Assembly: GCA_041178225.1 (NCBI GenBank)
Contig: JBEGVV010000024.1
Location: forward strand, 7,676-71,675
Length of the DNA: 64,000 bases
Reading direction: 5' to 3'
From: Pseudomonadota bacterium
Lineage (GTDB): Bacteria > Pseudomonadota > Alphaproteobacteria > CACIAM-22H2
Positions 2,041 to 59,132 of this stretch are shown here, piece by piece. The notes below the pieces were generated by a model. The model was not told the origin of the DNA, ran no database searches, and saw only the letters and a list, made by a program, of their open reading frames with translations. Numbering within the stretch: the first letter of the stretch is position 1; each line of letters opens with the position of its first letter. The position numbers and the translations under genes are program-made.

Positions 2041-3030
2041 ATGACCATCCTGAACCGTCGCGCCCTCGTCGCGGGCGCAGCCGCCCTCGGCGTCGCCGCC
2101 CCCGCCCTCGCGCAGGCCCGCAAGATCAAGGTCGCGGCGATCTACACCGTGCCCGTCGAGCAGCAATGGGTGAGCCGGATCCACAAGGCCATCAACGCCG
2201 CGGTCGCGCGCGGCGAGGCGGAGTACGCGTGGTCGGAGAACGTCTCGAACTCGGACTACGAGCGCGTGATGCGCGAATACGCCCAGAAGGGCGCCGACCT
2301 CGTCGTCGGCGAGGCGTTCGGCGTGGAGCGCGCGGCGCGCAAGGTCGCGGCCGACTTCCCGAAGACCTCGTTCCTGATCGGCTCGTCCTTCGGGCCGTCC
2401 GGCCGGAACTTCGCCGTGTTCGACAACTGGATCCAGGAGCCGGCCTACCTCACCGGCCTGGTCGCCGGCGGCATGACGAAGTCGGGGATCATCGGCCTCG
2501 TCGGCGGCTACCCCATCCCCGAGGTCAACCGGCTGATGCACGCCTTCATGGATGGCGCGCGCGAGACCAACAAGAACGTGCGCTTCATGGTGACCTTCAT
2601 CGGCAGCTGGTTCGACCCGCCGAAGGCCAAGGAGGCGGCCTTCGCGATGATCGACCGTGGCGCCGACATCCTCTACGCCGAGCGCTTCGGCGTGTCCGAC
2701 GCGGCGAAGGAGCGCGGCAAGCTCGCCATCGGCAACGTCATCGACACCCAGGCGCAGTACCCGCAGACCGTGGTCGCCTCGGCGCTCTGGCACATGGAGG
2801 CCACGATCGACCGCGCGATCGCGAAGGTGCGCGACGGCAGCTTCACCGCCGAGGACTACGGCCAGTTCTCGACGATGAAGTTCGGCGGCGCCAGCCTCGC
2901 GCCGCTCGGCACCTTCGAGGACAAGGTGCCTGCGGAGATCAAGGCCCTCGTGAAGTCGCGCGAGGCCGAGATCCGCGAGGGCATGTACCGCGTCAACGTC
3001 AACGACAGCGAGCCGCGCTCCTCCATGTGA
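2041..3030 (+). CDS. BMP-family (basic membrane protein, PnrA-like) ABC transporter substrate-binding protein for nucleosides/purines
   Basis: 329 aa with a Tat/Sec-like N-terminus MTILNRRALVAGAAALGVAAPALAQ. Typical BMP motifs (IGLVGGYPIPEVNRLMHAF, FIGSWFDPPKAKEAA). First gene of the ABC operon. Confidence 0.85.
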   Translation: MTILNRRALVAGAAALGVAAPALAQARKIKVAAIYTVPVEQQWVSRIHKAINAAVARGEAEYAWSENVSNSDYERVMREYAQKGADLVVGEAFGVERAARKVAADFPKTSFLIGSSFGPSGRNFAVFDNWIQEPAYLTGLVAGGMTKSGIIGLVGGYPIPEVNRLMHAFMDGARETNKNVRFMVTFIGSWFDPPKAKEAAFAMIDRGADILYAERFGVSDAAKERGKLAIGNVIDTQAQYPQTVVASALWHMEATIDRAIAKVRDGSFTAEDYGQFSTMKFGGASLAPLGTFEDKVPAEIKALVKSREAEIREGMYRVNVNDSEPRSSM

Positions 3031-3044
3031 GCGCGAGGCGGCGG

Positions 3045-3073
3045 CATCCCCGGCCCGGGTCGGGCCGGGGATG
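3045..3073 (+). promoter_or_regulatory. 13-bp perfect palindrome (stem-loop) in the SBP-ATPase intergenic region
   Basis: CATCCCCGGCCCG-ggt-CGGGCCGGGGATG lies between the SBP stop (3030) and the SD-supported ATPase start (3092). A strong GC hairpin inside an operon is typical of mRNA-stability or polarity elements downstream of SBP genes. Confidence 0.4.
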
Positions 3074-3091
3074 CGTGCCGCGGAGGACGGG

Positions 3092-4660
3092 ATGGACGAC
3101 GCGCCGAGCCACGACAGCGCCGAGGCGGGCACGCAAGCGCCGCCCGCGCTGCGCGTCGTCGGCGTCACCCGGCGCTTCGGGCCGCTCGTCGCCAACGACG
3201 CGATCACCTTCGAGGTCGCGCGCGGCGAGATCCTCGCACTGCTGGGCGAGAACGGCGCCGGCAAGACCACGCTGATGAACATCGTCTTCGGCCACTACGT
3301 GGCCGACGAAGGCCATGTCGAGGTCGCCGGCCGCAGGCTCGCGGGCGGCGACCCGCGCGCCGCGCTCGAGGCCGGCGTCGGCATGGTCCACCAGCACTTC
3401 ACGCTGGCCGACAACCTGAGCGTCCTCGACAACGTCATGCTCGGCACCGAGCGGCTCTGGCGCCTGCGCTCGGACCGCCGCGGTGCGCGCGCGCGCCTCG
3501 CAGAGATCGCGCGCGACGCGGGCCTCGAGGTCGACCCCGACGCGCTGGTGGGCCAGCTTGGCGTCGGCGAGCGCCAGCGCGTCGAGATCGTCAAGGCGCT
3601 CTACCGACGGCCGCGCGTGCTGATCCTCGACGAGCCCACGGCCGTCCTGACGCCGCAGGAGGCCGAGGGGCTCTTCGCCACGCTGCGCCGCCTGGTCGCC
3701 GACGGGCTCTCGATCGTCTTCATCAGCCACAAGCTCGGCGAGGTGCTCGCGGCGGCCGATCGCGTCGTCGTGCTCCGCCAGGGCAAGGTCGCGCTGTCCT
3801 GCGCCGCCGCGGGCGCGTCGCGCGAGGACCTCGCCACCGCGATGGTCGGCCACGCGGTCGCGCAGCCGCGGCTGGCGCCGGGGCGGCCCGGGCCGGTCGC
3901 GCTCTGCCTGCACCGCATCGACGCGCGCAGCGCCGACGGGCGCGTCGCGCTGCACCAGGTCGACCTCGAGTTGCGGCACCGCGAGATCCTCGGCATCGCC
4001 GGCGTGTCGGGCAACGGCCAGTCGCTCCTCGCCGACATCGCCTGCGGGATGGCGAAGCCGCGCTCGGGGCTCGTCTCGCTCGACGGCGAGGTGCGCGCGC
4101 CGGGCTCGCCGCGCCGCTTCCTCGAGGCCGGCCTCGGCCGCATCCCCGAGGACCGCCACGCCGCCGGCGTCGTCGGCGACATGACCGTGGCCGAGAACGC
4201 CGTCGTCGAGCGGCTCGGCGACCCGCGCTTCTCGCGGCTCGGCTTCCTGCGCAAGGCCGCGATCCGCATGCATGCCGAGCTGCTGGTCGCGGATTTCGAC
4301 ATACGCGGCGCGGGCCCGGCGACGCGCACGCGCCTGCTCTCGGGCGGCAACATCCAGAAGCTGATCCTCGGCCGCGTCCTGTCCGAGCACCCGACGATCA
4401 TCGTCGCGAACCAGCCGACGCGCGGGCTCGACGTCGGCGCGGTCGCCTACGTGCAGGAGCGGCTGGCGGCGGCGCGCGCGCTCGGCGCGGCCGTGCTGCT
4501 CGTCTCCGAGGACCTCGACGAACTGCTCGCGCTCTGCGACCGCATCGCCGTGATGTATCGCGGCCGCCTCTCGGCGCCGCTTCCCGCCGCCTCGCTCGAC
4601 GCGCGCACGCTTGGCCTGATGATGGCGGGCGGCACGCCGGAGGGGACCCATGCGGCTTGA
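3092..4660 (+). CDS. ABC transporter ATP-binding protein with two fused ATPase domains (BMP/sugar-type)
   Basis: Walker A motifs GENGAGKTT and GVSGNGQS, plus LSGG signatures, in one polypeptide. The ORF track starts at 3071, but the ATG at 3092 (MDDAPS...) is preceded by GGAGGA with 4-nt spacing, and the 3071 ATG lies inside the palindrome. Confidence 0.85.
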   Translation: MDDAPSHDSAEAGTQAPPALRVVGVTRRFGPLVANDAITFEVARGEILALLGENGAGKTTLMNIVFGHYVADEGHVEVAGRRLAGGDPRAALEAGVGMVHQHFTLADNLSVLDNVMLGTERLWRLRSDRRGARARLAEIARDAGLEVDPDALVGQLGVGERQRVEIVKALYRRPRVLILDEPTAVLTPQEAEGLFATLRRLVADGLSIVFISHKLGEVLAAADRVVVLRQGKVALSCAAAGASREDLATAMVGHAVAQPRLAPGRPGPVALCLHRIDARSADGRVALHQVDLELRHREILGIAGVSGNGQSLLADIACGMAKPRSGLVSLDGEVRAPGSPRRFLEAGLGRIPEDRHAAGVVGDMTVAENAVVERLGDPRFSRLGFLRKAAIRMHAELLVADFDIRGAGPATRTRLLSGGNIQKLILGRVLSEHPTIIVANQPTRGLDVGAVAYVQERLAAARALGAAVLLVSEDLDELLALCDRIAVMYRGRLSAPLPAASLDARTLGLMMAGGTPEGTHAA

Positions 4661-5699
4661 GCCGCGCGAGCGCGTCCCCGCATGGCTGTCGCTGCTCGCG
4701 CCGGCCTGCGCCCTCGCCGCGACCTTCGGCGCCGCCGCGGCGCTGATCGCGGCCGCGGGCGCGCCCGTCCGCCAGGGCTTCGAGGTGATGCTCGCGGGCG
4801 CGCTCGGCTCGGGCTTCGCCATCAACGAGATGCTGACCCGCGCGACGCCGCTGATCCTGACCGGGCTCGCGGTGTCCGTCGCGTTCCGCGCACGGCTCTG
4901 GAACATCGGCGCCGAGGGCCAGCTCTACATGGGCGCGCTCGCGGCGACCGCGCTCGGCACGGGCCTCGTCGACCTGCCCGCCTTCCTCCTGCTGCCGCTG
5001 CTCGTCGCCGCCGGCGCGCTCGCGGGCGCCGCGATGCTCGCCTGGCCCGCGCTGCTCAAGACCCGCCTCGGCGTCGACGAGGTCGTCGTCACGCTGCTGT
5101 CGAACTTCCTGGTCGCGCTTCTCGTGGCGATGCTGCTGGAGGGCCCGCTCAAGGACCCGATGGGCCTCGGCTGGCCGCAATCGGAGCCGGTCGTCGCCGC
5201 GGGCGAGCTGCCCAAGCTTGTCCCCGGCATGCGGCTGCACGCTGGATTCGTCCTCGCGCTGGTGCTCGCGCTGGCGACGTGGATCGTCATGTCGGGCACG
5301 ACGCTCGGCCTGCGCATCCGCGCGGTCGGGCTCAACGCCGTCGCGGCGCGCTTCGCCGGCATCGGCGTCGGGCGCACGATCCTGTGGACCGCGCTGCTCT
5401 CCGGCGGCCTCGCCGGCATCGCCGGCGTGAGCGAGGTCGCGGGCCTCAAGGGCAACCTCACGACCGACCTGTCGCCCGGCTTCGGCTATGCCGGCATCGT
5501 GGTCGCGACGCTCGCGCGGCTGCATCCCGGCGGCGTCGTGCTGTCGGCCATCTTCGTCGCCGGGATCTTCGTCGGCGCCGACGCGATGAGCCGCGGCGTC
5601 GGCGTGCCCAGCTACATCGCCGACGTCATCGTCGCCGCGGCGCTGCTGAGCATGCTCGTCGCGCTCCTCTTCCTGCGCTACCGCGTGAGCCGCCGATGA
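4650..5699 (+). CDS. ABC transporter permease (BMP/branched-chain-type, first of two)
   Basis: 349 aa, multi-TM and hydrophobic. Overlaps the ATPase stop by 11 nt and overlaps the next permease start by ATGA. Confidence 0.8.
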   Translation: MRLEPRERVPAWLSLLAPACALAATFGAAAALIAAAGAPVRQGFEVMLAGALGSGFAINEMLTRATPLILTGLAVSVAFRARLWNIGAEGQLYMGALAATALGTGLVDLPAFLLLPLLVAAGALAGAAMLAWPALLKTRLGVDEVVVTLLSNFLVALLVAMLLEGPLKDPMGLGWPQSEPVVAAGELPKLVPGMRLHAGFVLALVLALATWIVMSGTTLGLRIRAVGLNAVAARFAGIGVGRTILWTALLSGGLAGIAGVSEVAGLKGNLTTDLSPGFGYAGIVVATLARLHPGGVVLSAIFVAGIFVGADAMSRGVGVPSYIADVIVAAALLSMLVALLFLRYRVSRR

Positions 5700-6658
5700 T
5701 CCCGGCCATCCCCTGGGAAGCCATCGAGCTCCTCGCGCAGGCCAGCCTATGGGTGGCGGCGGTGCGCATCGCGACGCCGCTCGTGTTCGGCACGCTGGGC
5801 GAGCTCATCTGCGAGCGTGCCGGCGTGCTCAACCTCGGCATCGAGGGGATCATGGTCGTCGGCGCGCTGGTCGGCTGGTTCGCCGTCCACCAGGGCGCGG
5901 ACCTCTGGACCGGCGTGCTGCTCGCCGCGCTCGCGGGCGCGGCCTTCGGCCTGCTGCAGGCGCTGCTCACCGTGCCCCTGGCGCTCAGCCAGCACGTCGC
6001 GGGGATCGGCGTCACGCTGCTCGCGACCAGCCTCTCCTACTACGCCTACCGCCTCGCCTTCCCGAAGGTGACGACGCCGCCGCGCATCGAGACCTTCAAG
6101 CCGGTCGCGGTGCCCTGGCTGAGCGAGATCCCGGTGGTCGGGCCGGCGGTCTTCGTCCAGACGCCGCTCACCTACCTCGCGCTCGGCGCGGTCGTGGTCG
6201 TGGCGTGGTTCCTGCACCGCACGCCCGCGGGCCTCGCGCTGCGCATGGTCGGCGAGAACCCGGAGGCCGCGGAGGCCCAGGGCATCGACGTGATCCGCAC
6301 GCGCATCGCCGCGGTCTGCGCCGGCTCGGCGCTGATGGCGGTCGGCGGCGCGTTCCTGACGATGTCGGCCTTCGACGCCTTCTACTTCGGCATGGTGAAC
6401 GGCCGCGGCTGGATCTGCATCGCGCTGGTGGTGTTCGCGAGCTGGAACCCGCTCAAGGCGCTGTTCGGCGCGCTGCTCTTCGCCGCGCTCGACGCCTGGC
6501 AGCTGCGCCTCCAGCAGGTCGTCGGCGGCGACGTGCCCTACCAGGTCTTCCTGATGATGCCCTACGCGCTGAGCATCCTCGCCCTGGTCGTCATGTCGCG
6601 GCGCGCCGCCAGCCCGCGTGCGCTGATGGCCCCATACGTGAAGGGGGAGAGGCGATGA
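5696..6658 (+). CDS. ABC transporter permease (second of two)
   Basis: Starts MIPAIPWEAIELLAQASLWVAAV at an ATG overlapping the upstream stop (ATGA). 320 aa and hydrophobic. It is in the frame of track ORF 4682..6658, whose upstream part is an artefact. Confidence 0.8.
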   Translation: MIPAIPWEAIELLAQASLWVAAVRIATPLVFGTLGELICERAGVLNLGIEGIMVVGALVGWFAVHQGADLWTGVLLAALAGAAFGLLQALLTVPLALSQHVAGIGVTLLATSLSYYAYRLAFPKVTTPPRIETFKPVAVPWLSEIPVVGPAVFVQTPLTYLALGAVVVVAWFLHRTPAGLALRMVGENPEAAEAQGIDVIRTRIAAVCAGSALMAVGGAFLTMSAFDAFYFGMVNGRGWICIALVVFASWNPLKALFGALLFAALDAWQLRLQQVVGGDVPYQVFLMMPYALSILALVVMSRRAASPRALMAPYVKGERR

Positions 6659-7935
6659 TGGACCTCGTGGTCCGCGGCGCGGCGCTGCCCGATGGCCGCA
6701 AGGGCATGGACATCGGCGTGCGCGACGGGCGCATCGTCGCCGTGGAGCCGCGCCTCGCGGCCACGGGACGCGAGGAGATCGACGCGGGCGGCATGCTCGT
6801 CTCGCCGCCCTTCGTCGACGCCCATTTCCACATGGACGCGACGCTGTCGCTCGGCCTGCCGCGGCTCAACCGCTCGGGCACGCTGCTCGAGGGCATCGCG
6901 CTCTGGGGCGAGCTCAAGCCGACGCTGACGCAGGAAGCCGTCGTCGCCCGCGCCATGGCCTATTGCGACTGGGCCGCCGCGCAGGGACTGCTGGCGATAC
7001 GCAGCCATGTCGACGTCTGCGACGAGCGGCTGCTCGCGGTCGACGCGCTGCTCGAGGTCAGGCGCCGCGTCAGGCCGTACATCGACCTGCAGCTCGTCGC
7101 CTTCCCGCAGGACGGCGTGTTCCGCTACCCGCGCGCGATGGAGCTGCTGCGCGCGGCGCTCGACCGCGGCGTCGACGTCGTCGGCGGCATCCCGCATTTC
7201 GAGCGCACCATGGCCGAGGGCGCGCGTTCCGTCCGCGCGCTATGCGAGCTCGCGGCCGAGCGGGGCCTGCGCGTCGACATGCATTGCGACGAGACCGACG
7301 ACCCGATGTCGCGCCACGTCGAGACGCTGGCCTTCGAGGCGCAGCGCCTCGGCCTGCAGGGACGCGTCGTCGGCTCGCACCTCACCTCGATGCACAGCAT
7401 GGACAACTACTACGTCTCCAAGCTGGTGCCGCTGATGGCCGAGGCGGGCCTCGGCGTGGTCGCCAACCCGCTCATCAACATCTCGATCCAGGGCCGGCAC
7501 GACAGCTACCCGAAGCGGCGCGGCATGACCCGGGTGCCCGAGCTGATGGCGGCCGGGCTGACGGTCGCCTTCGGCCACGACTGCGTGATGGACCCCTGGT
7601 ACAGCCTCGGCACCGGGGACATGCTCGAGGTCGCCCAGATGGGCGTGCATGTCGCGCAGATGACCGGGCTCGACGCGATGGGTGCCTGCTTCGACGCCGT
7701 CACCTGCAACGCGGCGCGCCTGCTCGGCCTCGAGGGCTACGGGATCGAGCCGGGGTGCAACGCCGACCTCGTCCTGCTCGAGGCGCGCGACAAGGTGGAG
7801 GCGATCCGGACCCGCGCCGCGAGGCTCGCCGTCCTGCGCCGTGGCCGGGTCATCTCGCGCGCGCCGGCCCGGCGCGCGACGCTCGCCCTCGAGGGGCGGC
7901 CCGGGACGGTCGATTTCCTGCACCCGCGAGGCTGA
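6655..7935 (+). CDS. codA: Cytosine deaminase (amidohydrolase superfamily; CodA-type enzymes can also act as creatinine deaminases)
   Basis: Strong resemblance to E. coli CodA along the whole length (PPFVDAHFHMD, GTLLEGIALWGELK, HVDVCDERLLAVDALLEV, DLQLVAFPQDG, GGIPHFE, HCDETDDPMSRHVET, HSMDNYY, ANPLINISIQGRHDSYPKRRGMTRV, FGHDCVMDPWY). The ATG overlaps the permease stop. Confidence 0.85.
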   Translation: MMDLVVRGAALPDGRKGMDIGVRDGRIVAVEPRLAATGREEIDAGGMLVSPPFVDAHFHMDATLSLGLPRLNRSGTLLEGIALWGELKPTLTQEAVVARAMAYCDWAAAQGLLAIRSHVDVCDERLLAVDALLEVRRRVRPYIDLQLVAFPQDGVFRYPRAMELLRAALDRGVDVVGGIPHFERTMAEGARSVRALCELAAERGLRVDMHCDETDDPMSRHVETLAFEAQRLGLQGRVVGSHLTSMHSMDNYYVSKLVPLMAEAGLGVVANPLINISIQGRHDSYPKRRGMTRVPELMAAGLTVAFGHDCVMDPWYSLGTGDMLEVAQMGVHVAQMTGLDAMGACFDAVTCNAARLLGLEGYGIEPGCNADLVLLEARDKVEAIRTRAARLAVLRRGRVISRAPARRATLALEGRPGTVDFLHPRG

Positions 7936-10348: not shown

Positions 10349-10362
10349 GGCCCGCGCGTGCC

Positions 10363-10671
10363 TCAGCCCTTCGCCGGCTCGCGCCCGCCAGCGGCGACGA
10401 GCGCGGCGAGCCGCGCGTCGTCGTAGTCGCGCTCGAAGGCGGCCGCGGCCTCGGCCGCCGCGGCCTCGAGGTCGTCGCCGCAGGGAACGGGCTCGGCGCG
10501 GCGCCACTCCGCCAGGTAGGCGTCGGTCTCGCGCGCGCCGCCGCGCATCGCCGCGCGGTCGATCGCGTCCTGGAAGCGCTGCGGCAGCTCGCGCTTCGCG
10601 TTCGCGCGCCCCGCCTTCGCGATCACCTGGGCAGGGATGTCGCGCCACCAGATCACCGTCAGCTGCGCCAT
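10363..10671 (-). CDS. Small conserved hypothetical protein (about 102 aa), often seen in corrinoid/methyltransferase clusters; possibly 'virulence factor' small-protein family
   Basis: MAQLTVIWWRDIPAQVIAKAGRANAKRELPQRFQDAIDRAAMRGG...EPVPCGDDLEAAAAEAAAAFERDYDD. The ATG at 10669-10671 overlaps the DUF1638 3' end, and there is a 14-bp gap to the RACo start. The family assignment is from memory and tentative. Confidence 0.5.
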   Translation of the reverse strand: MAQLTVIWWRDIPAQVIAKAGRANAKRELPQRFQDAIDRAAMRGGARETDAYLAEWRRAEPVPCGDDLEAAAAEAAAAFERDYDDARLAALVAAGGREPAKG

Positions 10672-16258: not shown

Positions 16259-18263
<2,005 letters not shown>

Positions 18264-18271
<8 letters not shown>

Positions 18272-20053: not shown

Positions 20054-20117
20054 GCCGCGCGCAGGCCGCCACCGCCGCGGGCCCGAAGCCCGCGGCGGTG
20101 GCTGCGCGCGACCTGGA

Positions 20118-27647: not shown

Positions 27648-27660
27648 GCGGGCGGCCTCC

Positions 27661-35706: not shown

Positions 35707-35719
35707 CCGGGGCAAGGCG

Positions 35720-38095: not shown

Positions 38096-38096
38096 G

Positions 38097-38840: not shown

Positions 38841-38898
38841 GTCCCGCCCCTTCCCGGCCTGTTCCCCTGCCGACAACCTAGCGTCGCCGGCGCGCCTC

Positions 38899-38968: not shown

Positions 38969-38970
38969 AC

Positions 38971-39750: not shown

Positions 39751-39775
39751 GCGGCAGGCAGGGGGACGACGGGGA

Positions 39776-41818: not shown

Positions 41819-41822
41819 GCCC

Positions 41823-43835: not shown

Positions 43836-43845
43836 GACGGACGAC

Positions 43846-44598: not shown

Positions 44599-44632
44599 AC
44601 AGGTTCACCACGGAAACAGGAGGAGGCTTGCG

Positions 44633-46186: not shown

Positions 46187-46243
46187 CGAAAGGCGATCCC
46201 CTCCCTTGCCGCGACGCGGCGAGGGAGGGGATGATCCCCTGGC

Positions 46244-50064: not shown

Positions 50065-50916
50065 TCAGCCGAAGCCGTAGAGCGTCGCCGGGTTGTCGAC
50101 GAGCACGCGCCGCGCGGTGGCGTCGTCGCCCGCCCACTCGACGAAGCGGTCGAGCAGCACGGAGATGTCGGGCTTCACGGCCTCGGTCGGGTGCGGCCAG
50201 TCGGTCGCCCAGAGCATCCGCTCCGGCGCGAGGCGCAGGAACGCGCGGGTGAGCGCGCCGACATCCGCGTAGCCGGGCGGCCCGGAGCGCGAGAAATGGT
50301 AGCCGGCGCTCAGCTTCACCCATGTCCGGCCGCGCTCGACGAGCCCCGCCGCGACGGCGAAGGCCGGATGCGCCGCGCCATCGGGATGCGGGATGCGCCC
50401 GAAATGGTCTAGGACCATGGTCACGGGCAGCGCTTGAAGCCGCGGCGCCGCGTCGACGAGCAGGTCGGGATCGAGGTGGAGCTGCAGGTGCCAGCCCATC
50501 TCGTCCACGCGCGCCGCCAGGCGCTCGAGGCGCGCGACGTTGCCGCGCGACGGGCCCACGGCCTGCAGCCGGACGCCCACGACGCCGCCGCGGCCAAGCG
50601 CGGCGAGGTCGGACTTGTCCTCGTCGCCGGAGACCACGGCGATCGCCCGCGCGCGCCCCGCGCCGAGGCGCGCGACCGCGTCGAGCGTGCAGGCATTGTC
50701 GGTCCCGTAGACCGAGGGCTGGATGACGACGCTGCGCGCGAAGCCGATCCGCGCCCGGAAGGCGGCGTAGTCGTCCGCCGTCGCGTCGCCCGGGCGGTAC
50801 TGCGCGCCGGGCACGAGCGGGAACCGCCCGTCATAGACGTGGTGGTGGCAATCCGTGGCCCCCGGCGGCGCGCGATGCGCCGGCGCCGAGGGACGAGGCA
50901 GCCAGCCCTCGCTCAT
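50065..50916 (-). CDS. Amidohydrolase-2 family metal-dependent hydrolase (PF04909-like)
   Basis: 283 aa with DCHHHVY (HxH metal motif), a later DHFG, and WATDWPH, all typical of amidohydrolase_2. Its ATG overlaps the stop of the large upstream gene. Confidence 0.75.
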   Translation of the reverse strand: MSEGWLPRPSAPAHRAPPGATDCHHHVYDGRFPLVPGAQYRPGDATADDYAAFRARIGFARSVVIQPSVYGTDNACTLDAVARLGAGRARAIAVVSGDEDKSDLAALGRGGVVGVRLQAVGPSRGNVARLERLAARVDEMGWHLQLHLDPDLLVDAAPRLQALPVTMVLDHFGRIPHPDGAAHPAFAVAAGLVERGRTWVKLSAGYHFSRSGPPGYADVGALTRAFLRLAPERMLWATDWPHPTEAVKPDISVLLDRFVEWAGDDATARRVLVDNPATLYGFG

Positions 50917-53150: not shown

Positions 53151-53297
53151 CTCTTCCCTCCGGCTCCCTCGCGCGGCGCGGCGCCGCTCCCTTTCCCGCA
53201 TCTTGCCACGGCGCGCGTCCCCGCCCAGAGTGGAACTTCGGATGGACGGGGCGCAGTGCCCCGGTCCGGCGGGGACAAGCAGAGGGGAGACAACGAG

Positions 53298-54878
53298 ATG
53301 ATTCGATCCACCACGGGCCTGCGCATGCTCGCGCTCGCCGGAACCGCGCTGTTCGGCATGGCGGGGACCGCCGCCGCGCAGGGCTTCGAGTGCCCGCGCA
53401 AGGGCGGCGACCTCGTGTTCGGCCTCGAGGCGCGCGTCGCGACGCTCGACCAGCACGCGACCAACGCCGCGGCGCCGCGCAACGTCACCATGAACATCTT
53501 CGAGTCTCTGCTGACGCGCGACGAGGGGATGAACCCGATGCTCGAGCTTGCGGAGTCCGTCTCCGAGAGCACCGACAAGCTCACCTACACCTTCAAGCTC
53601 AGGCAGGGCGCCCGCTTCCACAACGGCAAGCTCCTGACCGCGGACGACGTGGTCGCGTCGTTCAACCGCTACAAGCGCCTCGGCATCGACCGCTCGATCC
53701 TCGACCAGATCGCGAAGTGGGAGGCCGCCGACGCCTCGACCTTCGTCGTCACGCTCAAGGAGCCGCGCCCGATCTTCATGGAGACGTTCTCGGCCTTCAC
53801 CACGCCGATCGTCATCATCCCGAAGGAGCACGAGGACGCCGGCCCGCAGCAGCTGCCGATCATCGGCACCGGGCCCTTCCAGCTCGTCGAGTTCGTGGCC
53901 GACAGCCACGTCAAGCTCAAGCGCTTCGACGGCTACAAGGCCGACACCCGCCACAAGGACGTCGTGGGCTTCGGCGGCTCCAAGACCGCCTGCCTCGACA
54001 CGGTCACCTTCCGCATGATGACCGAGCCCGCGGCGCGCATCGCGGCGCTCGAGGCCGGCGAGATCCATGGCTCCGAGGACGTGCCGACGCTCATGCAGAA
54101 GCGGCTGGCGTCCAACGCGAACATCAAGCAGGCCAACCTGAACAGCTTCTGGCTGCACGTCACCTACCCGAACTTCTCCTTCCCGCCGACGGACAACGTG
54201 AAGTTCCGCCAGGCCGTCCAGGCCGCGATGGACATGGAGGAGATCATGGAGGCCGCGAGCGACGGCAACTTCAAGCTCCACCACGCCCTGCAGTTCAACG
54301 GCAGCGCCTACTACTCCGACGTCGGCAAGGAGCTCTACAACCAGAAGAACAAGGACAAGGCCAGGAAGCTGCTCCAGGAGGCCGGGTACAAGGGCGAGAA
54401 GGTGACGCTGCTCACCAACCGAGAGTACCAGAGCATGTACAACACCTCGGTCGTGATGGCCGAGCAGATGAAGGCCGTCGGCATCAACGCCGAGCTGCTG
54501 ATCCTCGACTGGCCCGCCGCGCTCGACATGAGCATGAAGAGGAACGACGGCTGGAACTTCTTCTTCACCGGCTGGATCACGGTGACGGCCTCGGGCGGCC
54601 AGCAGTCGCTGCGCTTCCTCGTCGAGCCGACCAACGTGCACCGGCCCAAGGACAACAAGACGAACCCGGAGTTCAAGCGGCTCTTCGACTCGATCGGCGC
54701 GACCGCGTCGCTCGACGATCGCAAGGCCGCCTTCGCCGCGGCACAGCGCATCGCCTACGACGACGTCATGGTGATCCCGATGGGCACGCTGCCCAAGGGC
54801 CAGGCCGTGCGCGCGAACGTCGAGAACTTCAAGCCTTACTACATCCCGCGCATGTCCAACGTCTGGCTCAGGAACTGA
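53298..54878 (+). CDS. ABC transporter substrate-binding protein, family 5, orphan (no adjacent permease or ATPase genes)
   Basis: Signal peptide MIRSTTGLRMLALAGTALFGMAGTAAAQG. About 526 aa, Lys-rich. The ATG at 53298 is preceded by GGGGAGA. Confidence 0.8.
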   Translation: MIRSTTGLRMLALAGTALFGMAGTAAAQGFECPRKGGDLVFGLEARVATLDQHATNAAAPRNVTMNIFESLLTRDEGMNPMLELAESVSESTDKLTYTFKLRQGARFHNGKLLTADDVVASFNRYKRLGIDRSILDQIAKWEAADASTFVVTLKEPRPIFMETFSAFTTPIVIIPKEHEDAGPQQLPIIGTGPFQLVEFVADSHVKLKRFDGYKADTRHKDVVGFGGSKTACLDTVTFRMMTEPAARIAALEAGEIHGSEDVPTLMQKRLASNANIKQANLNSFWLHVTYPNFSFPPTDNVKFRQAVQAAMDMEEIMEAASDGNFKLHHALQFNGSAYYSDVGKELYNQKNKDKARKLLQEAGYKGEKVTLLTNREYQSMYNTSVVMAEQMKAVGINAELLILDWPAALDMSMKRNDGWNFFFTGWITVTASGGQQSLRFLVEPTNVHRPKDNKTNPEFKRLFDSIGATASLDDRKAAFAAAQRIAYDDVMVIPMGTLPKGQAVRANVENFKPYYIPRMSNVWLRN

Positions 54879-54948
54879 CGAACGACAAGGACGGTCCCTC
54901 CCCGCCGGCACCACCGGCGGGGAGGGTTCCGGCCGCGAGGCGCGCGCG

Positions 54949-56217
54949 ATGAACGAACGACCCAACCGCCCGCGCTTCCCCGGGGAAGGCGTTCCCCGCG
55001 AGCGGATACTGGCCGACCTCGCCGCCATGCAGGCTGGCGACGTCCCGGCCCATGGGTCGAGGAACCTGCGCCCGAACTACTACGTCGACGACGAGATCCT
55101 CGCGCTGATCGACGAGGTCTCCGCAAGGGTCGCGGAACAGAACGTCCTCTACGCCGGCAGCTCCTATCCCAGCATCGCGCGCATCGAGGCCGAGCTCGTC
55201 GAGATGGGCCTCGACCTGTTCGGCGCGCCGGTCGACGCCGCCGGCACCGTCACCACGGGCGGCAGCGAGAGCAACTTCCTCGCGGTGAAGGCCGCGCGCG
55301 ACCTCTTCGCCGCGCGCCGCGGCGGCGCAGGCGGCAGGCCAGAGCTCGTCCTCGCCCATACCGCGCATCCCTCCTTCGAGAAGGCCGCGCATTTCCTCGG
55401 CGTGCGCACCCGCCGCGCGAGCCGCAGCGTCGGCTTCGCCGCGGACGTCGAGGCGATGGCCGCGATGGCCGGGCCCGACACGATCATGATGGTGGGCTCC
55501 GCCCCGCCGGCCGCCTACGGGCAGGCCGACCCGATCCGCGAGCTCGCCACGATCGCGGCGCGCCACGGCATCTGGTTCCACGTCGATTCCTGCATGGGCG
55601 GGTTCTTCCTGCCCTTCGCGCGCGAACTCGGCGAGCCGGTGCCGGACTTCGACTTCCGCGTGCCAGGCGTGTGGTCGCTTTCCGCCGACCTGCACAAGTT
55701 CGGCTACGCGCCCAAGGGCGCCTCGCTGCTCCTGCTCGCCGACCGCGCGCATCTCGCCTTCCAGGAATACCGCTTCGAGGACTGGCCCTGGGGCCTCTAC
55801 GCCACCGCCGGCTTCTCCGGCTCGCGCCCCGCGGCGCCGGTGGTCGCGGCATGGAGCGTGATGCGCCGCCTCGGCAGGCGCGGCTACCTCGACGTCACGC
55901 GCCGTACCCTCGCCGTGAAGCACCGGCTCATGGACGGCGTGCGCGCCATCCCCGGCCTCGGCGTCGTCGGCCGGCCCGACGCCGCGCATTTCTTCGTCTT
56001 CGGCGATGGCCTCGACGCCTACGCCGTGGAGGAAGGCCTCTCGGCGCGTGGATGGGCGCTCGCGCGCGCGCGGCTGCCGGATTCCTTCCAGGTCTGGCCG
56101 GGCATCCCGCACGAGCAGAGCGCGGGCGAGTTCCTCGCTGACCTCGCCGAGGTCGCGGCGCAGGTGCGCGAGGCGGGCACGCGCTCGGCCGATCGCGCGG
56201 CGGTCTACGCGCGCTGA
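54949..56217 (+). CDS. PLP-dependent decarboxylase, group II (glutamate decarboxylase / sphingosine-phosphate-lyase-like fold type I)
   Basis: SADLHKFGYAPKG (PLP-Lys in the HK motif), TGGSESN, and HVDSCMGG. 422 aa. Confidence 0.75.
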   Translation: MNERPNRPRFPGEGVPRERILADLAAMQAGDVPAHGSRNLRPNYYVDDEILALIDEVSARVAEQNVLYAGSSYPSIARIEAELVEMGLDLFGAPVDAAGTVTTGGSESNFLAVKAARDLFAARRGGAGGRPELVLAHTAHPSFEKAAHFLGVRTRRASRSVGFAADVEAMAAMAGPDTIMMVGSAPPAAYGQADPIRELATIAARHGIWFHVDSCMGGFFLPFARELGEPVPDFDFRVPGVWSLSADLHKFGYAPKGASLLLLADRAHLAFQEYRFEDWPWGLYATAGFSGSRPAAPVVAAWSVMRRLGRRGYLDVTRRTLAVKHRLMDGVRAIPGLGVVGRPDAAHFFVFGDGLDAYAVEEGLSARGWALARARLPDSFQVWPGIPHEQSAGEFLADLAEVAAQVREAGTRSADRAAVYAR

Positions 56218-56224: not shown

Positions 56225-56962
56225 CTAGGCGCCGATCTCCGCGAAGAGCCGGCCCCAGCCGCGGACGCGTCGCGCATCGACGCCGGCTCGGCGCAGGCTG
56301 CCCCAGAGCGCGGTCGCGACGCTGTCCAGCACGAGGACGCCGAGTTCGCGCTCCAGCGCCTCGACGACCGGCGCGCCCCGCATGTTCGTGCACAGCACGA
56401 CGACGGCCTGCGGGCGCGCCTTCGCGACCTCGCGCACGAGGCCCGCGATCGTCTCCCCGGAATACTCGGAGAAGGAGAAGTTGCCGCGGTCGCGCAGGTG
56501 CCGCTCCGCGACGCACTCGAAGCCCTCGCGCGCGAGGTTCGGCAGGATCCGCTCCTGGATCTCGTCGAGATAGGGCGTCACCAGCCCGTAGCGCGTCACG
56601 CCCGCGAGGCGGAAGATCTCCGCCAGCGCGAGGACCGAGGTCGTCGCGCCTATCCCCGTGCGCGCCTCGATCGCGGCGCAGAGCGCGCGGTCGCGGTCGA
56701 GCCCGAGCCAGCTCGCCGAGGTGCCGTTCCACGCGATCGAGGCAACGCGCGCGTCGGCGAGCAGGTCGCAGGCGGCGAGGATGGGCTCGAGGTCGAACTG
56801 GCCGAGAGCCTGGTCGCGCATCGAGATCTCGGTCACGCGGAAGCGCGCGAAATGCGCGGTGACGTCGGGCAGGCCAGAGAGCATCGCCGCGGTGACCGGC
56901 TCGAGCACCGTGTTCGATGACGGCGTCAGCATGCCAAGGAGCGTGCGCGGGCCCGGCGCCAT
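56225..56962 (-). CDS. Asp/Glu/hydantoin racemase superfamily protein (maleate isomerase / arylmalonate decarboxylase-like)
   Basis: GMLTPSSNTVLEP, and later LCTNM (catalytic Cys context). 245 aa. Confidence 0.7.
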   Translation of the reverse strand: MAPGPRTLLGMLTPSSNTVLEPVTAAMLSGLPDVTAHFARFRVTEISMRDQALGQFDLEPILAACDLLADARVASIAWNGTSASWLGLDRDRALCAAIEARTGIGATTSVLALAEIFRLAGVTRYGLVTPYLDEIQERILPNLAREGFECVAERHLRDRGNFSFSEYSGETIAGLVREVAKARPQAVVVLCTNMRGAPVVEALERELGVLVLDSVATALWGSLRRAGVDARRVRGWGRLFAEIGA

Positions 56963-56965
56963 GCC

Positions 56966-57724
56966 TCAGCCCTTGCCGCCGCCATCGCCGCGCAGCGCCG
57001 CGGCGAGCGCGTCGCCGATGCCGGTGCTCTCGCGCCCCGCGGGCGCGGCGAATGCCCCAGTCCGCGCCTTCGCGGCGCCGAGCCGGACCAGCGCCTCGGC
57101 CTGGCGGAAGGCGGCGGCCACGCCCTCGACGACCGGCACGACGCAGCGGGGCTGCAGGCGCGGCCCCGCCCCGGCCATGACCGCGCCGCTGATCACCGCC
57201 ACCTCGATGCCGTCGCGCTCGGCCATGTCGTTGATCGCGTCGGCGACCTGTGCGTCGACCGCGAGCGCGCCCTCGGGCGTGTAGACCGCGCGCGAGTCGA
57301 CGACGCGCCACGCCGCGAGCCGCGCGCCAAAGCCGTGCCCCTCGATCAGCGTGCGGTAGAGGGCCATCGAGCGCGCGTCGAAGGTGACGAAGCCGAAGCG
57401 GCCGCCGAGCTGGCGCGCGGTCAGCAGCGCCGCCTCGGTCATCGCGACGACCGGGATGGGCAGCAGCTCGCGCCCGGCGCGCAGGCCCGTGTCCCAGGAG
57501 ACGGCGACCAGCACCGCGTCGCAGCCCGGCGCGTGCCGCGCCATGAGCTCCACGGCAGCGTGCTCGCCAATGGCCATCTCGGTCCACGTCCCGATCACCC
57601 GGCCGCCGAAGCTGCCCGTGGCCTCGACGATCTCGGTGCCCGGCGAGGCCATGGCGCGCACGGCATCCGCCACGCGCCGGGTGACGAACTCCGACGTGTT
57701 GGCGTTGAGGACCAGCAGCCGCAC
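56966..57724 (-). CDS. Asp/Glu/hydantoin racemase family protein (HyuE-like), probable GTG start
   Basis: Conserved core begins (V/M)RLLVLNANTSEFVTRRVADAV. The upstream ATG at 57826 would overlap the amidase gene by 86 nt, so the GTG at about 57724, leaving a 16-nt gap, is preferred. Confidence 0.6.
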   Translation of the reverse strand: MRLLVLNANTSEFVTRRVADAVRAMASPGTEIVEATGSFGGRVIGTWTEMAIGEHAAVELMARHAPGCDAVLVAVSWDTGLRAGRELLPIPVVAMTEAALLTARQLGGRFGFVTFDARSMALYRTLIEGHGFGARLAAWRVVDSRAVYTPEGALAVDAQVADAINDMAERDGIEVAVISGAVMAGAGPRLQPRCVVPVVEGVAAAFRQAEALVRLGAAKARTGAFAAPAGRESTGIGDALAAALRGDGGGKG

Positions 57725-57740
57725 GCGGGCGCCCTGCCGC

Positions 57741-59132
57741 TCAGCCCTTGGGCATCGCGAAGGGCGCCAGCGCCTCGTAGGCCCGCGCCGCGCGCAGCAC
57801 CAGCGCGTCGGCGTAGCGCGCGCCAACGACCTGAAGCCCGATCGGCAGGCCCGCGGAGGTGAAGCCGCAGGGCACGCTCGCGGCCGGGTGGCCGGTGAAG
57901 TTGAACGGGAAGTGGAACGGGGCCCAGTCGAGCCACTCCTTCATCCCGCTGCCCGGTGGCACCTCGTGGCCGACCTCGAAGGCCGGCACGGAGAGGCTGG
58001 GCGTCAGCAGGAGGTCATGGCTCTCCATGAACGCGTTCATCCTGCGCCCCAGCGCGTCGCGCGCGCCCCAGGCGCGCAGCAGCTCCATGCCCGTCGTGGT
58101 CCGGCCACGCGCGGAGAAGCGCACGTAGCCGGGATCCATCAGCGAGCGCTTCTCCGGCGCGACGGACTCCACGGTCAGCGCCATGTTGGTGACGTAGAAG
58201 AGCTCCATCGGCTCGCGGCAATCCTCGATGCCGGGATCCACCTCCTCGACGATCGCGCCGAGCTCGGCGAAGCGATGCGCCGCGGCGCGGACCGCGGCCG
58301 CGATCTCCGGGTCGACGTTGCGCACGTAGCCGAGCGTCGGGCTGTAGGCGACGCGCAGGCCGCGCACCCCGGCCTCGAGGCCGACGCGGTAGTCGCGGAC
58401 ATCGGGCGGCGGCGCGAGCCAGTCGCGCGCGTCGGGCCGCGCCATGACGGAGAGCATCAGCGCCGCGTCCTCGACCGTGCGCGTCAGCGGCCCGGTATGC
58501 GACTGCATCGGCAGGGCGCCATAGGGCCAGGCCGGGACGCGGGCATAGGTGGGCTTGAGGCCGAACACGCCGCAGAAGGTCGCGGGCATGCGCACCGAGC
58601 CGGCGCCGTCGGACCCGTGGTGCAGGAAGCCCATGTTGAGGGCGGCGCAGACGCCCGCGCCGCTGCTCGAGCCGCCGGCGGTCTTGCTGCGGTCCCAGGG
58701 ATTGCGCGTGAGGCCGGTCAGCGGCGAATCGCTCGTCCCCTTCCATCCGAATTCCGGCATCGTCGTCTTGCCGAGCAGGATCGCGCCCTCCTCGCGCAGC
58801 CGCGCGACCGCGGGCGCGTCGTCGGGGGCGACCTCGTCGGGCGAGGTGGTGCGCGAGCCGCGCCGCCAGCCCCAGCCCTTCACCGGCCACTGGTCCTTGA
58901 TGGTCGTCGGGATGCCGTCGACGAGGCCAGCCGGCCTCCCCTTCGCCCATCGCGCCTCGGACGCCCGCGCGGCCTCGAGCGCTTCCTCGGGCTTCAGCAC
59001 GCAGAAGGCGTTGTGCGCGGGATCGAGGGCGCCGATGCGGTCGTAGACCGACTTCGTCACCTCGACGGGCGAGAGCTTCCTCGCCCGGTACAGCCGCAGC
59101 AGCTCGGCGGCGGTCAGCGTCGCGATGTCCAT
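57741..59132 (-). CDS. Amidase (amidase-signature family)
   Basis: GGSSSGAG and the surrounding AS-family Ser-cisSer-Lys context (KDQW...TTMPEFGW..GGSSSGAGV). 463 aa. Confidence 0.8.
   Translation of the reverse strand: MDIATLTAAELLRLYRARKLSPVEVTKSVYDRIGALDPAHNAFCVLKPEEALEAARASEARWAKGRPAGLVDGIPTTIKDQWPVKGWGWRRGSRTTSPDEVAPDDAPAVARLREEGAILLGKTTMPEFGWKGTSDSPLTGLTRNPWDRSKTAGGSSSGAGVCAALNMGFLHHGSDGAGSVRMPATFCGVFGLKPTYARVPAWPYGALPMQSHTGPLTRTVEDAALMLSVMARPDARDWLAPPPDVRDYRVGLEAGVRGLRVAYSPTLGYVRNVDPEIAAAVRAAAHRFAELGAIVEEVDPGIEDCREPMELFYVTNMALTVESVAPEKRSLMDPGYVRFSARGRTTTGMELLRAWGARDALGRRMNAFMESHDLLLTPSLSVPAFEVGHEVPPGSGMKEWLDWAPFHFPFNFTGHPAASVPCGFTSAGLPIGLQVVGARYADALVLRAARAYEALAPFAMPKG

Follow-up and report, generated by a model that had tools for sequence, protein, structure and literature searches.

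We found 52 genes by codon bias in the 64-kb window (the whole stretch of DNA analysed here), 50 of which were covered by a Pfam scan. The window likely belongs to the chromosome of an uncultured freshwater alphaproteobacterium with a very high GC content. In it, several operons that each couple uptake to catabolism of organic nitrogen compounds lie side by side, independent of one another. Family assignments, residue conservation, operon structure and synteny across species are direct observations, and the features are as follows (Pfam throughout, further sources in brackets):

2041..7935, + strand: g2-g6 operon of a BMP/PnrA-type binding protein, ABC ATPase, two permeases and a CodA-type cytosine deaminase
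6655-7935, + strand: g6, CodA-like amidohydrolase (NCBIfam NF005748)
8321..11989, - strand: g8-g11, corrinoid machinery (NCBIfam)
8321-10348, - strand: g8, RamA/RACo-type reductive activase (NCBIfam AcsV/RamA-like, below the equivalog cut-off)
10363-10671, - strand: g9, Virulence_fact-domain protein
10659-11297, - strand: g10, DUF1638
11294-11989, - strand: g11, MtgC-like, B12-binding corrinoid protein (NCBIfam MtgC-like)
12156..16238, + strand: g12-g14 operon
12156-14567, + strand: g12, DMGDH-type FAD/folate enzyme (DAO+FAO_M+GCV_T+GCV_T_C)
14545-14991, + strand: g13, GFA-family protein
14988-16238, + strand: g14, DddP-like M24 di-metal enzyme (NCBIfam DddP; PDB)
16259..21788, - strand: g15-g18, Dpp-type ABC importer with a fused double ATPase, two permeases and a family-5 binding protein
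21922..25168, + strand: g19-g21 operon
21922-23463 (alternative start 22042), + strand: g19, non-Pyl MttB paralog 1 (PF06253), 513 aa by the MAG gene call
23460-24275, + strand: g20, PhnD-like binding-protein-fold protein
24272-25168, + strand: g21, FA_desaturase-family membrane protein
25172..28794, - strand: g22, MmgE/PrpD family; g23, mandelate-racemase subgroup of the enolase superfamily; g24, iron-containing alcohol dehydrogenase
29196..36874, + strand: g25-g29 operon
29196-31604, + strand: g25, DMGDH-type enzyme (DAO+FAO_M+GCV_T+GCV_T_C)
31601-33136, + strand: g26, MttB paralog 2 (PF06253)
33140-34150, + strand: g27, 2OG-Fe(II) oxygenase
34222-35706, + strand: g28, MttB paralog 3 (PF06253)
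35720-36874, + strand: g29, acyl-CoA dehydrogenase
36878..50051, mixed strands: g30-g40, MFS and SDR (minus), then IclR, HyuA, HyuB, SDR and a Dpp-type importer
39776-41818: g33, HyuA
41823-43835: g34, HyuB
44663-50051: Dpp-type ABC importer of the HyuAB module
50065..56217: g41, Amidohydro_2; g42, DMFase-like; g43, orphan binding protein; g44, PLP-dependent decarboxylase
50913-53129: g42, DMFase-large-subunit-family amidase (DMFA2_C)
53256-54878: g43, orphan family-5 binding protein
56225..63998: g45-g52 block, whose third Dpp-type importer runs off the window
56225-56962: g45, arylmalonate-decarboxylase-like, Asp/Glu/hydantoin-racemase superfamily
56966-57724: g46, Asp/Glu/hydantoin-racemase-family protein
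57741-59132: g47, amidase-signature amidase (NCBIfam NF004815)
To 63998: g48-g52, third Dpp-type ABC importer, family-5 binding protein starting at 59196

Every gene named in the original prediction is present where it was placed and in the family assigned to it (Pfam). Of the four Dpp-type ABC systems it counted, all four family-5 binding proteins exist (starts 20118, 44663, 53256 and 59196), but only three transporters are complete, 53256-54878 being an orphan; 2041-6658 encodes a further ABC system, the fifth, which is of BMP/PnrA type. The paralogs from which it read an expansion are likewise there (two DMGDH-type, three MttB and four binding proteins), but the expansion is old, as indicated by pairwise identities of 60% for the DMGDH-type proteins, 46-53% for the MttB paralogs and 23-29% for the binding proteins. 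Its window-wide theme of methylated-nitrogen catabolism holds for about 28 kb (8.3-36.9 kb) and gives way to unrelated units in the remaining modules. The corrinoid protein, DUF1638, the Virulence_fact-domain protein and the RamA/RACo-type activase, which it overlooked, are what renders the MttB genes interpretable.

The assignment of the 8.3-36.9 kb region to demethylation of methylated onium compounds is supported, because its gene set matches the aerobic MtgB/MtgC system of Ruegeria pomeroyi (PMC12478193). Its core is probably a cobalamin-dependent demethylation system of this aerobic MtgB/MtgC type, and the window thereby likely joins a recently described B12-dependent betaine-type system to several unrelated nitrogen-scavenging operons. 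In R. pomeroyi, knockouts showed that glycine betaine use requires both MtgC and the pterin-binding MtgD, and proteomics found two PF06253 proteins, RamA and DUF1638 to rise on N-osmolytes; up to seven MttB paralogs occur per genome, often with co-located genes for DMG/sarcosine demethylation (PMC12478193). The window shares with the MtgBCD(E) systems of R. pomeroyi and Phaeobacter inhibens several PF06253 MttB proteins without pyrrolysine, a separate B12-binding corrinoid protein, a RamA-type activase, DUF1638 and DMG/sarcosine demethylation genes nearby. Unlike these systems, the window itself has no genes for the pterin-binding MtgD or the homocysteine-binding MtgE; therefore, we assume that the methyl acceptor is encoded elsewhere, as in R. 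pomeroyi. The R. pomeroyi system, which has been demonstrated genetically, has dispersed genes and a GBT-induced transporter of the BCCT type, whereas in the window the genes form a tight cluster that also includes a Dpp-type importer and a DddP-like gene. Since 8.3-36.9 kb contains no regulator gene, the sub-operons can be taken as co-regulated only tentatively.

The window paralogs belong to the same superfamily as the anaerobic MtgB of D. hafniense and the MtpB, MtcB, MtyB and MthB of Eubacterium limosum, in which, as here, one corrinoid protein is presumably common to several substrate-specific methyltransferases. They are 34-36% identical to D. hafniense MtgB (g26 scores 296 bits against it and 347 bits against 4yyc), and all three retain its carboxylate-binding R312 and H348 but lack its cation-pi pair Y97/F356, the glycine-betaine-binding aromatic pair, which is replaced by G/A/S and G, respectively. 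The same pattern is seen in family members that use other quaternary amines (PMC13080624, the source of the MtgB residues). At the level of sequence, this loss argues against canonical glycine betaine binding of the D. hafniense type, the comparison being with that protein and not with aerobic MtgB proteins. The window host also differs from the anaerobes in being presumably aerobic, judging from its FAD-dependent dehydrogenases and oxygenases, and g11 falls below both NCBIfam MtgC cut-offs; all AcsV/RamA-like and MtgC-like matches of g8-g11 are under their equivalog cut-offs. Among the other members of the core, g25 scores 610 bits against rat DMGDH, and the binding protein of g15-g18 (start 20118) has only weak, DppA-like PDB matches. 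The N-terminus of g20, inspected by eye, has no obvious signal peptide, and g19-g21 co-occur in other loci too. The g23 protein resembles acid-sugar dehydratases (PDB, NCBIfam), with the betaine epimerase HpbD absent among its PDB/NCBIfam matches listed; g23 and g24 are also found in compact clusters of other species.

We infer the substrates, the direction of methyl flow and the pairing of paralogs with compounds along the following lines. The three non-pyrrolysine MttB-family methyltransferases would each demethylate a quaternary onium substrate that bears a carboxylate, handing the methyl to the Co(I) form of the corrinoid protein g11, which the RamA-type activase g8, with g10 (DUF1638) and g9, is predicted to maintain in the reduced state. 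Transfer of the methyl to tetrahydrofolate would fall to a pterin-binding methyltransferase whose gene lies outside the window. Tertiary and secondary amines produced in this way could then be oxidatively demethylated by the DMGDH-type FAD/folate enzymes g12 and g25, with the formaldehyde perhaps handled by the GFA-family g13. The Dpp-type importer g15-g18 and the DddP-like g14 are likely members of the same conserved neighborhood.

Gene-neighborhood analysis of 77 loci/species centered on g14 homologs, with 10-kb flanks that limit the test for genes further apart, recovered an MttB gene in 30 and a DMGDH-type gene in 27. Together with the three MttB genes of the window, which lie within 14 kb, this indicates clustering that exceeds chance. 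At least five further species (L028, L031, L035-L037) have the same gene set in more compact form, and there the Virulence_fact gene and the g14 homolog are separated by a gene for an MtgE-type homocysteine S-methyltransferase; subunits of heterotetrameric sarcosine oxidase adjoin the cluster in L028 and L045, and the g15-g18 importer adjoins g14 homologs in many species (65-81% identity). As a new observation, a DddP-like clade adjoins quaternary-amine demethylation genes, either MttB/corrinoid or Rieske, in many species.

Two further readings bear on the core. The corrinoid proteins could act mainly, or additionally, as the split methionine synthase, and it is a tentative possibility that g8-g11 are primarily the organism's split cobalamin-dependent methionine synthase, with the proximity to MttB and DMGDH-type genes being secondary. 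The MtgE-type gene inside the cluster of related species favors this, but the module has MttB genes at its flanks, both here and in many species, and the window has no MtgE or MtgD gene of its own; moreover, the two functions are not exclusive, because aerobic MtgBCD(E) acts both as a glycine-betaine methyltransferase and as a split methionine synthase (Mausz et al. 2025, PMC12478193). The other reading takes g14 for a true DMSP lyase, such that the core would also convert the sulfonium osmolyte DMSP to DMS and acrylate, with downstream steps carried out by g24 (Fe-ADH), g29 (acyl-CoA dehydrogenase) and g22 (PrpD-like). Like the DddPs of Roseobacter denitrificans (RdDddP, 4b28) and Ruegeria lacuscaerulea (4rzy), g14 has the M24 pita-bread fold, and it retains all eight metal and catalytic residues of RdDddP (six metal ligands, Tyr366 and Asp377) at 45% identity over 381 aligned residues (E=2e-104); active DMSP lyases include fungal DddPs whose identity to RdDddP is as low as 32-50% (PMC4108388). 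For g29, NCBIfam ranks acryloyl-CoA reductase first (329 bits, below cut-off), and a BCCT transporter and an aldehyde dehydrogenase lie beside Pseudomonas homologs. However, the best NCBIfam match of g14, DddP, reaches 419 bits against an equivalog cut-off of 600, and its 80 relatives, all 39-46% identical to RdDddP and 56-96% to g14, form a separate clade, which takes in members from Roseovarius and Rhodobacteraceae MAGs and whose hosts are for the most part freshwater or soil bacteria. Neighbors of this clade are MttB/corrinoid, DMGDH-type or Rieske demethylase genes rather than known ddd/acu genes, and in the full gene tally g22 is rare near g14 homologs (3/77 loci) and g29 never found, which makes a DMSP lyase unlikely.

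Outside the core, g2-g6, a nucleoside-type transporter operon, would take up pyrimidines or nucleobases and then carry out a cytosine-type deamination, and g30-g40 would provide an IclR-controlled HyuAB hydrolase of the lactam/hydantoin type that depends on ATP, along with two SDRs and a dedicated importer. Successive genes of g2-g6 overlap by 4-11 bp, except for a 40-bp gap between g2 and g3. Skermanella rosea has the identical five-gene unit, which in one MAG lies beside PreT/PreA-like (dihydropyrimidine-dehydrogenase) genes. The g6 protein scores 805 bits against the NCBIfam cytosine deaminase NF005748 (cut-off 438) and 370 bits against the E. coli CodA structure (1k6w, 1.5e-109), with which it shares seven catalytic residues (H61, H63, Q156, H214, E217, H246 and D313). 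It differs from that enzyme in having Cys in place of D314, and in residing in an ABC-importer operon rather than being paired with the CodB permease. Substitutions of D314 alter selectivity for 5-substituted cytosines. HyuA and HyuB match best the NCBIfam caprolactamases CapA/CapB (448/264 bits against a cut-off of 1000), far under every equivalog cut-off, and their PDB matches are weak. Cereibacter sphaeroides and Chelativorans each carry the IclR-HyuAB-SDR-ABC-SDR-MFS gene content intact, and neither has genes of the creatinine pathway next to it. Since each recurs intact in unrelated surroundings, and neither lies within 10 kb of g14 homologs (CodA, HyuA or HyuB homologs in 0/77 loci), g2-g6 and g30-g40 are independent modules.

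These contexts bear on the route from creatinine and creatine to sarcosine that the original prediction had assembled from scattered genes, in which g6 would be the creatinine deaminase, g33/g34 the N-methylhydantoinase and g14 the creatinase, while g12/g25 would oxidize the sarcosine. Some CodA-family enzymes do deaminate creatinine (e.g., C. glutamicum CodA; PMC8864220), ATP-dependent N-methylhydantoinase belongs to the HyuA/HyuB family, the best PDB chain for g34 (255 bits) is so named by its depositors, automatic IMG names of homologs include 'N-methylhydantoinase B' and 'cytosine/creatinine deaminase', and g12 and g25 have the DMGDH/SARDH architecture. Nevertheless, the route fails on every step and is highly improbable. 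The g6 deaminase passes the cytosine-deaminase subfamily cut-off and lies within a conserved Bmp-ABC operon of pyrimidine-type context, HyuAB sits in a conserved stand-alone module, and the HyuA/HyuB family also includes 5-oxoprolinase, caprolactamase and carboxylases (PMC8453981). A PDB search with g14 returned no creatinase chain at E<=1e-3, and g14 has no Creatinase_N domain. The isochorismatase-type N-carbamoylsarcosine amidase (CSHase), for which a check had been proposed, is absent among the 50 Pfam-scanned products of the window. The three would-be steps are spread over three distinct operons, 7-24 kb from one another, and are never together near g14 homologs; in C. glutamicum ATCC 14067, cshA and hyuB are single-gene operons with consecutive locus numbers (CEY17_RS15995 and RS16000). 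A horizontal origin of the 64-kb stretch as a catabolic island is very unlikely too. In its favor, accessory catabolic and transport genes are densely packed, a relative at about 82-90% identity displays module-level gains and losses, and a transposase lies beside the HyuAB module in Chelativorans. Against it, composition is uniform, and thus gives no hint of such an origin: GC is 0.68-0.75 and GC3 0.956 +/- 0.019 across all genes, with four short genes just over 2 s.d. below the mean (0.906-0.915) and none far off. The window has no tRNA genes, no integrase or transposase domain is found among the Pfam-scanned products, and the closest GTDB species representative keeps gene order over the covered ~21 kb, with 81-100% protein identity.

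At the right-hand end, g41-g52 would combine acylase, amidase, racemase and decarboxylase activities with peptide-type importers. Here, g47 scores 635 bits against the NCBIfam amidase NF004815 (cut-off 506), an entry that names no substrate. The suggestion of dimethylformamide as a substrate is weak: g42 is closer to an acylase of N-acyl-beta-amino acids, with 525 bits for N-acetyl-(R)-beta-phenylalanine acylase and 390 bits for DMFase. It has no adjacent small-subunit gene, and the DMFase large subunit alone was inactive (PMC7686228). With Paracoccus N,N-dimethylformamidase (6lvb) and the Burkholderia acylase (8huy), g42 shares the three-domain large-subunit family and the conserved residues Y399, Y440, H519, E521, N547 and E657.

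The central 28 kb of the window encodes a system for the catabolism of methylated compounds that is already known in kind, but this function, which the original prediction gave to the window as a whole, does not extend to all of it. Every protein family named in that prediction is present in its place (Pfam scan of 50 products), and at the protein-family level the prediction was largely correct. Four minus-strand genes at 8321-11989 escaped it; they are assigned here by Pfam:

Within 8321-11989, minus strand: corrinoid activase with Fer2 and RACo domains (RamA-type)
10363-10671, within the same span, minus strand: Virulence_fact-domain protein
Within 8321-11989, minus strand: DUF1638 protein
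Within 8321-11989, minus strand: corrinoid protein with B12-binding_2 and B12-binding domains

According to Mausz et al. 2025 (PMC12478193), knockouts in the aerobic Ruegeria pomeroyi show the corrinoid protein MtgC and the pterin-binding protein MtgD to be essential for glycine betaine use, both doubling as parts of a split methionine synthase, and two PF06253 proteins (MtgB; SPO2108 and SPO2134), RamA and a DUF1638 protein go up in the proteome on N-osmolytes. The same work gives up to seven PF06253 paralogs per genome and describes genes for DMG and sarcosine demethylation as often co-located in other bacteria. In the window, we found a separate corrinoid protein (g11), a RamA-type activase (g8) and a DUF1638 protein (g10): the top NCBIfam matches of g11 are MtgC models, with scores under their cut-offs, and g8 is a RamA/AcsV-like activase. 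The three MttB paralogs (g19, g26 and g28) are uninterrupted ORFs that match PF06253 over nearly their full length (Pfam) and fall on the non-Pyl side of this family, all three scoring under the NCBIfam cut-off for the Pyl-type trimethylamine methyltransferase. Two further proteins, g12 and g25, both combine DAO, FAO_M, GCV_T and GCV_T_C domains (Pfam), which is the DMGDH/SARDH-type architecture; they are 60% identical to each other, and g25 aligns to rat DMGDH with 610 bits. The pterin-binding domain of MtgD was not found among the window products scanned with Pfam, nor is there a homocysteine-binding gene in the window; MtgD could still be encoded elsewhere in the genome, since mtgD is likewise unlinked in R. 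pomeroyi (PMC12478193). Aerobic cobalamin-dependent demethylation of methylated osmolytes, first shown in marine Roseobacters in 2025, is thereby extended to uncultured freshwater Alphaproteobacteria.

The 28-kb methyltransferase region (8321-36874) holds no transcription-regulator genes; in a relative a LysR gene adjoins mtgC, and in another species a histidine kinase gene lies 3' of a PhnD-like gene. The Virulence_fact (PF13769) protein, of 102 residues, is encoded next to the RamA-type activase in the window and in the related clusters examined, its gene lying between those for the activase and the DUF1638 protein both in the window and in a relative at 82-90% protein identity; we found no mention of it in the available portions of PMC12478193. 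The PhnD-like g20, encoded with the FA_desaturase-family membrane protein g21 at 23460-25168, has a binding-protein fold and, by eye, an N-terminus without an obvious signal peptide. A 4-bp overlap links its gene to the end of the MttB gene g19, and another links it to the start of g21; g20 and g21 are also found near homologs of g14 and MttB elsewhere, in 6 and 11 of 77 loci. For the ligand of g18, the binding protein of the Dpp-type importer g15-g18, the PDB gives weak DppA/OppA-like matches of about 100 bits or less. We also considered whether the enolase-superfamily protein g23 might be the hydroxyproline/proline-betaine epimerase HpbD, which would have hinted at proline betaine, and dropped the idea because no HpbD-named match is listed for it: the PDB and NCBIfam matches listed are all mandelate-racemase-subgroup acid-sugar dehydratases, each under its cut-off.

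In MtgB of D. hafniense, Y97 and F356 make cation-pi contacts to the quaternary nitrogen of glycine betaine, and R312 and H348 hold its carboxylate; in family members acting on other quaternary amines R312 is retained and H348 often is, but the aromatic residues are missing (Picking et al. 2026, PMC13080624). With this enzyme as reference, R312 and H348 are retained in all three window paralogs, position 97 is G, A or S, and position 356 is G throughout. Identity is 46-53% among the paralogs and 34-36% between them and D. hafniense MtgB. We infer from the sequences that they probably take carboxylate-bearing onium compounds, glycine betaine possibly among them; three such divergent paralogs, their substrate sites unlike that of the glycine-betaine enzyme, would imply that in lakes and soils both the range of substrates and the demand for cobalamin are wider.

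The creatinase-fold hydrolase of the original prediction (g14, 14988-16238) is no creatinase, as it matches only Peptidase_M24, without Creatinase_N, and no creatinase chain in the PDB at E<=1e-3. The NCBIfam model that it matches best is that of the DMSP lyase DddP, though its 419 bits fall short of the equivalog cut-off (600); prolidase-type NCBIfam matches score at most 61 bits, and no creatinase is among the matches listed. In the PDB it finds the DddPs of Roseobacter denitrificans (RdDddP, 4b28; 2e-104) and Ruegeria lacuscaerulea (RlDddP, 4rzy; 8e-100). It is 45% identical to RdDddP and keeps 8/8 of the DddP metal-ligand and catalytic residues listed in PMC4108388, namely the binuclear metal ligands D295, D297, D307, H371, E406 and E421, together with Y366 and D377. 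Surveying one genome per species, we collected relatives of g14 at 56-96% identity from 80 loci; since their identity to RdDddP is 39-46% in every case, they make up a clade of their own, and g14 itself neither reaches the NCBIfam cut-off for DddP nor falls among the tested DddPs. Most hosts are Alphaproteobacteria from freshwater or soil, with some Pseudomonas and Mycobacterium. Neighbours were tallied over 77 loci, near-identical relatives being excluded.

Genes at most 10 kb from the g14 homolog
MttB: 30/77 loci
DMGDH-type: 27/77 loci
Family-5 binding protein: 27/77 loci
MtgC-like: 12/77 loci
CodA homolog: 0/77 loci
HyuA homolog: 0/77 loci
HyuB homolog: 0/77 loci

A compact version of the window g8-g28 gene set occurs in five species (loci L028, L031 and L035-L037). 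There, at ~8800-14200, the g14 homolog stands on one strand between a PF02574 homocysteine S-methyltransferase gene (MtgE-type) and mtgC-DUF1638-mttB, and hence inside a split methionine synthase/Mtg cluster. Sarcosine-oxidase subunit genes adjoin the clusters in L028 and L045, the latter a further g14-homolog locus. In hosts other than Alphaproteobacteria, Rieske-type oxygenases take the place of MttB as neighbours of the DddP-like gene. In Ectopseudomonas chengduensis (L082, 4100-14900) it is flanked by genes for a Rieske oxygenase alpha subunit, an aldehyde dehydrogenase, rubredoxin/reductase, a DAO-family enzyme and MFS and BCCT transporters, and in Mycobacterium sp. 141 (L067, 8700-14800) by a gene of the proline-racemase family and by genes for a Rieske oxygenase and the matching reductase. 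Our literature search found no work joining DddP with MttB; one genome report names both, unlinked.

DMSP-lyase activity of g14 is conceivable, since fungal DddPs that share 32-50% of their residues with RdDddP do cleave DMSP (PMC4108388). We posit tentatively, and with more doubt than confidence, that the g14 clade is instead not a DMSP lyase but an uncharacterised di-metal enzyme and a regular partner of quaternary-amine demethylation. As such a partner, g14 would cleave or hydrolyse some betaine-type compound imported by the adjoining importer, one option, by analogy with DMSP cleavage, being beta-elimination of the amine from a 3-onium-propionate; its product would pass to the cobalamin-dependent and FAD-dependent demethylases. 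The conserved association of the DddP-like clade with demethylation clusters is a lead, not a result, and is what we consider the most interesting residue of this analysis. Sequences of the g14 clade could be caught by DddP-based DMSP-lyase marker surveys of metagenomes, and the clade may act otherwise.

The headline of the original prediction, a route from creatinine or creatine to sarcosine, is not supported: its genes belong to three separate operons, each unit recurs alone elsewhere, and CodA, HyuA and HyuB homologs are absent within 10 kb of the g14 homologs in all 77 loci. The N-carbamoylsarcosine amidase expected of such a pathway has no counterpart in the window, as none of the 50 window products scanned with Pfam carries an isochorismatase domain. 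The deaminase assigned to the first step, g6, scores 805 bits with NF005748, the NCBIfam model for the cytosine-deaminase subfamily (cut-off 438), matches the E. coli CodA structure at 1.5e-109 and, aligned to 1r9y, keeps H61, H63, Q156, H214, E217, H246 and D313. At the position of E. coli CodA Asp314 it has a Cys (window 7594-7596). Substitutions of D314 in CodA move selectivity toward 5-substituted cytosines, so that the preferred substrate of g6 may not be plain cytosine. The g6 gene ends a Bmp-ATPase-permease-permease operon, overlapping the preceding permease gene by 4 bp. The five-gene Bmp-ABC-CodA unit recurs in Skermanella rosea, with homologs at 79% identity in unrelated surroundings, and in another genome its immediate neighbours are PreT/PreA-like dihydropyrimidine-dehydrogenase genes on one side and an M20 peptidase gene on the other. 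This Bmp-ABC operon, once found beside PreT/PreA-like genes, favours pyrimidine or nucleobase scavenging. A creatinine side activity of g6 is conceivable, since CodA of C. glutamicum has one (PMC8864220); we found nothing usable in the literature on CodA specificity determinants for creatinine. The case illustrates that a list of protein families may point to a pathway, in this instance that of creatinine, without support from operon structure and cross-species synteny. Located 3' of the codA-like gene is a 66-codon ORF (g7, 8045-8245) with no Pfam match; its conservation in the closest species representative is 100%, and a relative with an 82% identical CodA-like protein has an ORF of 66 residues in that position.

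The HyuA and HyuB families (g33 and g34) were likewise confirmed by Pfam, in a family that, according to PMC8453981, covers 5-oxoprolinases, hydantoinases, lactamases and carboxylases. The top NCBIfam matches are to caprolactamase, CapA at 448 and CapB at 264 bits, far below the cut-offs of 1000. In the PDB, HyuB matches best a chain of 1288 residues that bears the name N-methylhydantoinase (255 bits), followed by caprolactamase (213 bits). Neither the 'N-methylhydantoinase' 7hk5 nor caprolactamase is close enough to settle the HyuAB substrate, and we found no literature describing 7hk5/9h03. Homologs 64-65% identical in Cereibacter sphaeroides and Chelativorans share a repeated arrangement of IclR, HyuA, HyuB, SDR, PF01522 deacetylase, binding protein, two permeases, two ATPases, SDR and MFS genes, which is the content of window g30-g40 plus the PF01522 deacetylase. 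The arrangement differs in Roseomonas sp. HF4 (68% identity), which has an ApbA-family gene and an SDR gene 5' of HyuAB and an SDR gene 3' of it; an isochorismatase gene lies ~6 kb from HyuAB in Roseomonas, on the opposite strand and adjoining an NMT1-type binding protein. Creatinine-pathway genes do not accompany the HyuAB module.

The suggestion that dimethylformamide is a substrate, based on the DMFase-like g42 (50913-53129), also fails to find support: g42 scores 525 bits against the single-subunit N-acetyl-(R)-beta-phenylalanine acylase and 390 against DMFase, and a gene for the small subunit, which DMFase requires for activity (PMC7686228), is absent. Aligned to 6lvb, g42 keeps the Fe ligands Y399, Y440 and E521 as well as H519, N547 and E657. 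These residues look family-wide, since, judging by the motifs in its alignment, they appear to be kept in the beta-phenylalanine acylase too. We consider g42 best called simply an amide hydrolase. On one side, after a gap of only 126 bp, lies the divergent g43 and on the other the Amidohydro_2 gene g41. Together with its closeness to the acylase, the company of g43, which encodes the orphan family-5 binding protein, and of a PLP-dependent decarboxylase gene suggests the use of N-acyl-amino acids or amides. The g47 amidase, the racemase-superfamily g45 and g46, the g44 decarboxylase and the g41 Amidohydro_2 protein carry no N-methyl-specific signal.

The reading of the window as a single-purpose island is not supported, and composition speaks against a horizontal or foreign origin. 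The GC3 is 0.956 +/- 0.019 over the 52 genes and gene GC is 0.68-0.75; GC, GC3 and codon-usage divergence are all uniform gene by gene, only four short genes falling, slightly, more than 2 s.d. under the GC3 mean (0.906-0.915). The window contains no tRNA genes that could serve as island markers, and a search for cobalamin or other riboswitches gave no Rfam match at gathering score.

A protein identical to g14 is encoded, in the same gene order, both on MAG contigs (GCA_049422165.1, GCA_049422885.1) and on contigs from lake metagenomes. In the nearest GTDB species representative, the Alphaproteobacteria MAG K_DeepCast_35m, the g14 homolog is 96% identical and the g4-g22 order is the same. The relative at ~82-90% protein identity carries g6 and g34 homologs together on a 78.6-kb contig with the large-scale gene order of the window. 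It has additional chemotaxis and PAS genes 3' of the codA-like gene, LysR and PrpD-like genes in place of window g12-g14, and two MttB genes without a 2OG oxygenase between them, and it lacks the IclR gene. From this conserved order and these module-level differences we conclude that the region is a mosaic of modules inside a vertically inherited neighbourhood.

Because the window has 72% G+C and a GC3 near 0.96, genes were called by codon bias instead of ORF length, which gave 52 genes with hardly any intergenic space. Plain ORF lists are nearly useless here (152 ORFs of >=150 aa against the 52 genes), as third-position G+C is extreme and very uniform. Of the four Dpp systems originally predicted, the four family-5 binding proteins are present but only three systems are complete (g15-g18, g36-g40 and g48-g52), g43 being an orphan; an additional ABC system, of the BMP type, is encoded by g2-g5. 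The first gene, g1 (1-1929), has no Pfam match and encodes a protein of 642 residues with an apparent N-terminal signal sequence and a C-terminal glutamine run (QRQQQQQQQRRQ).
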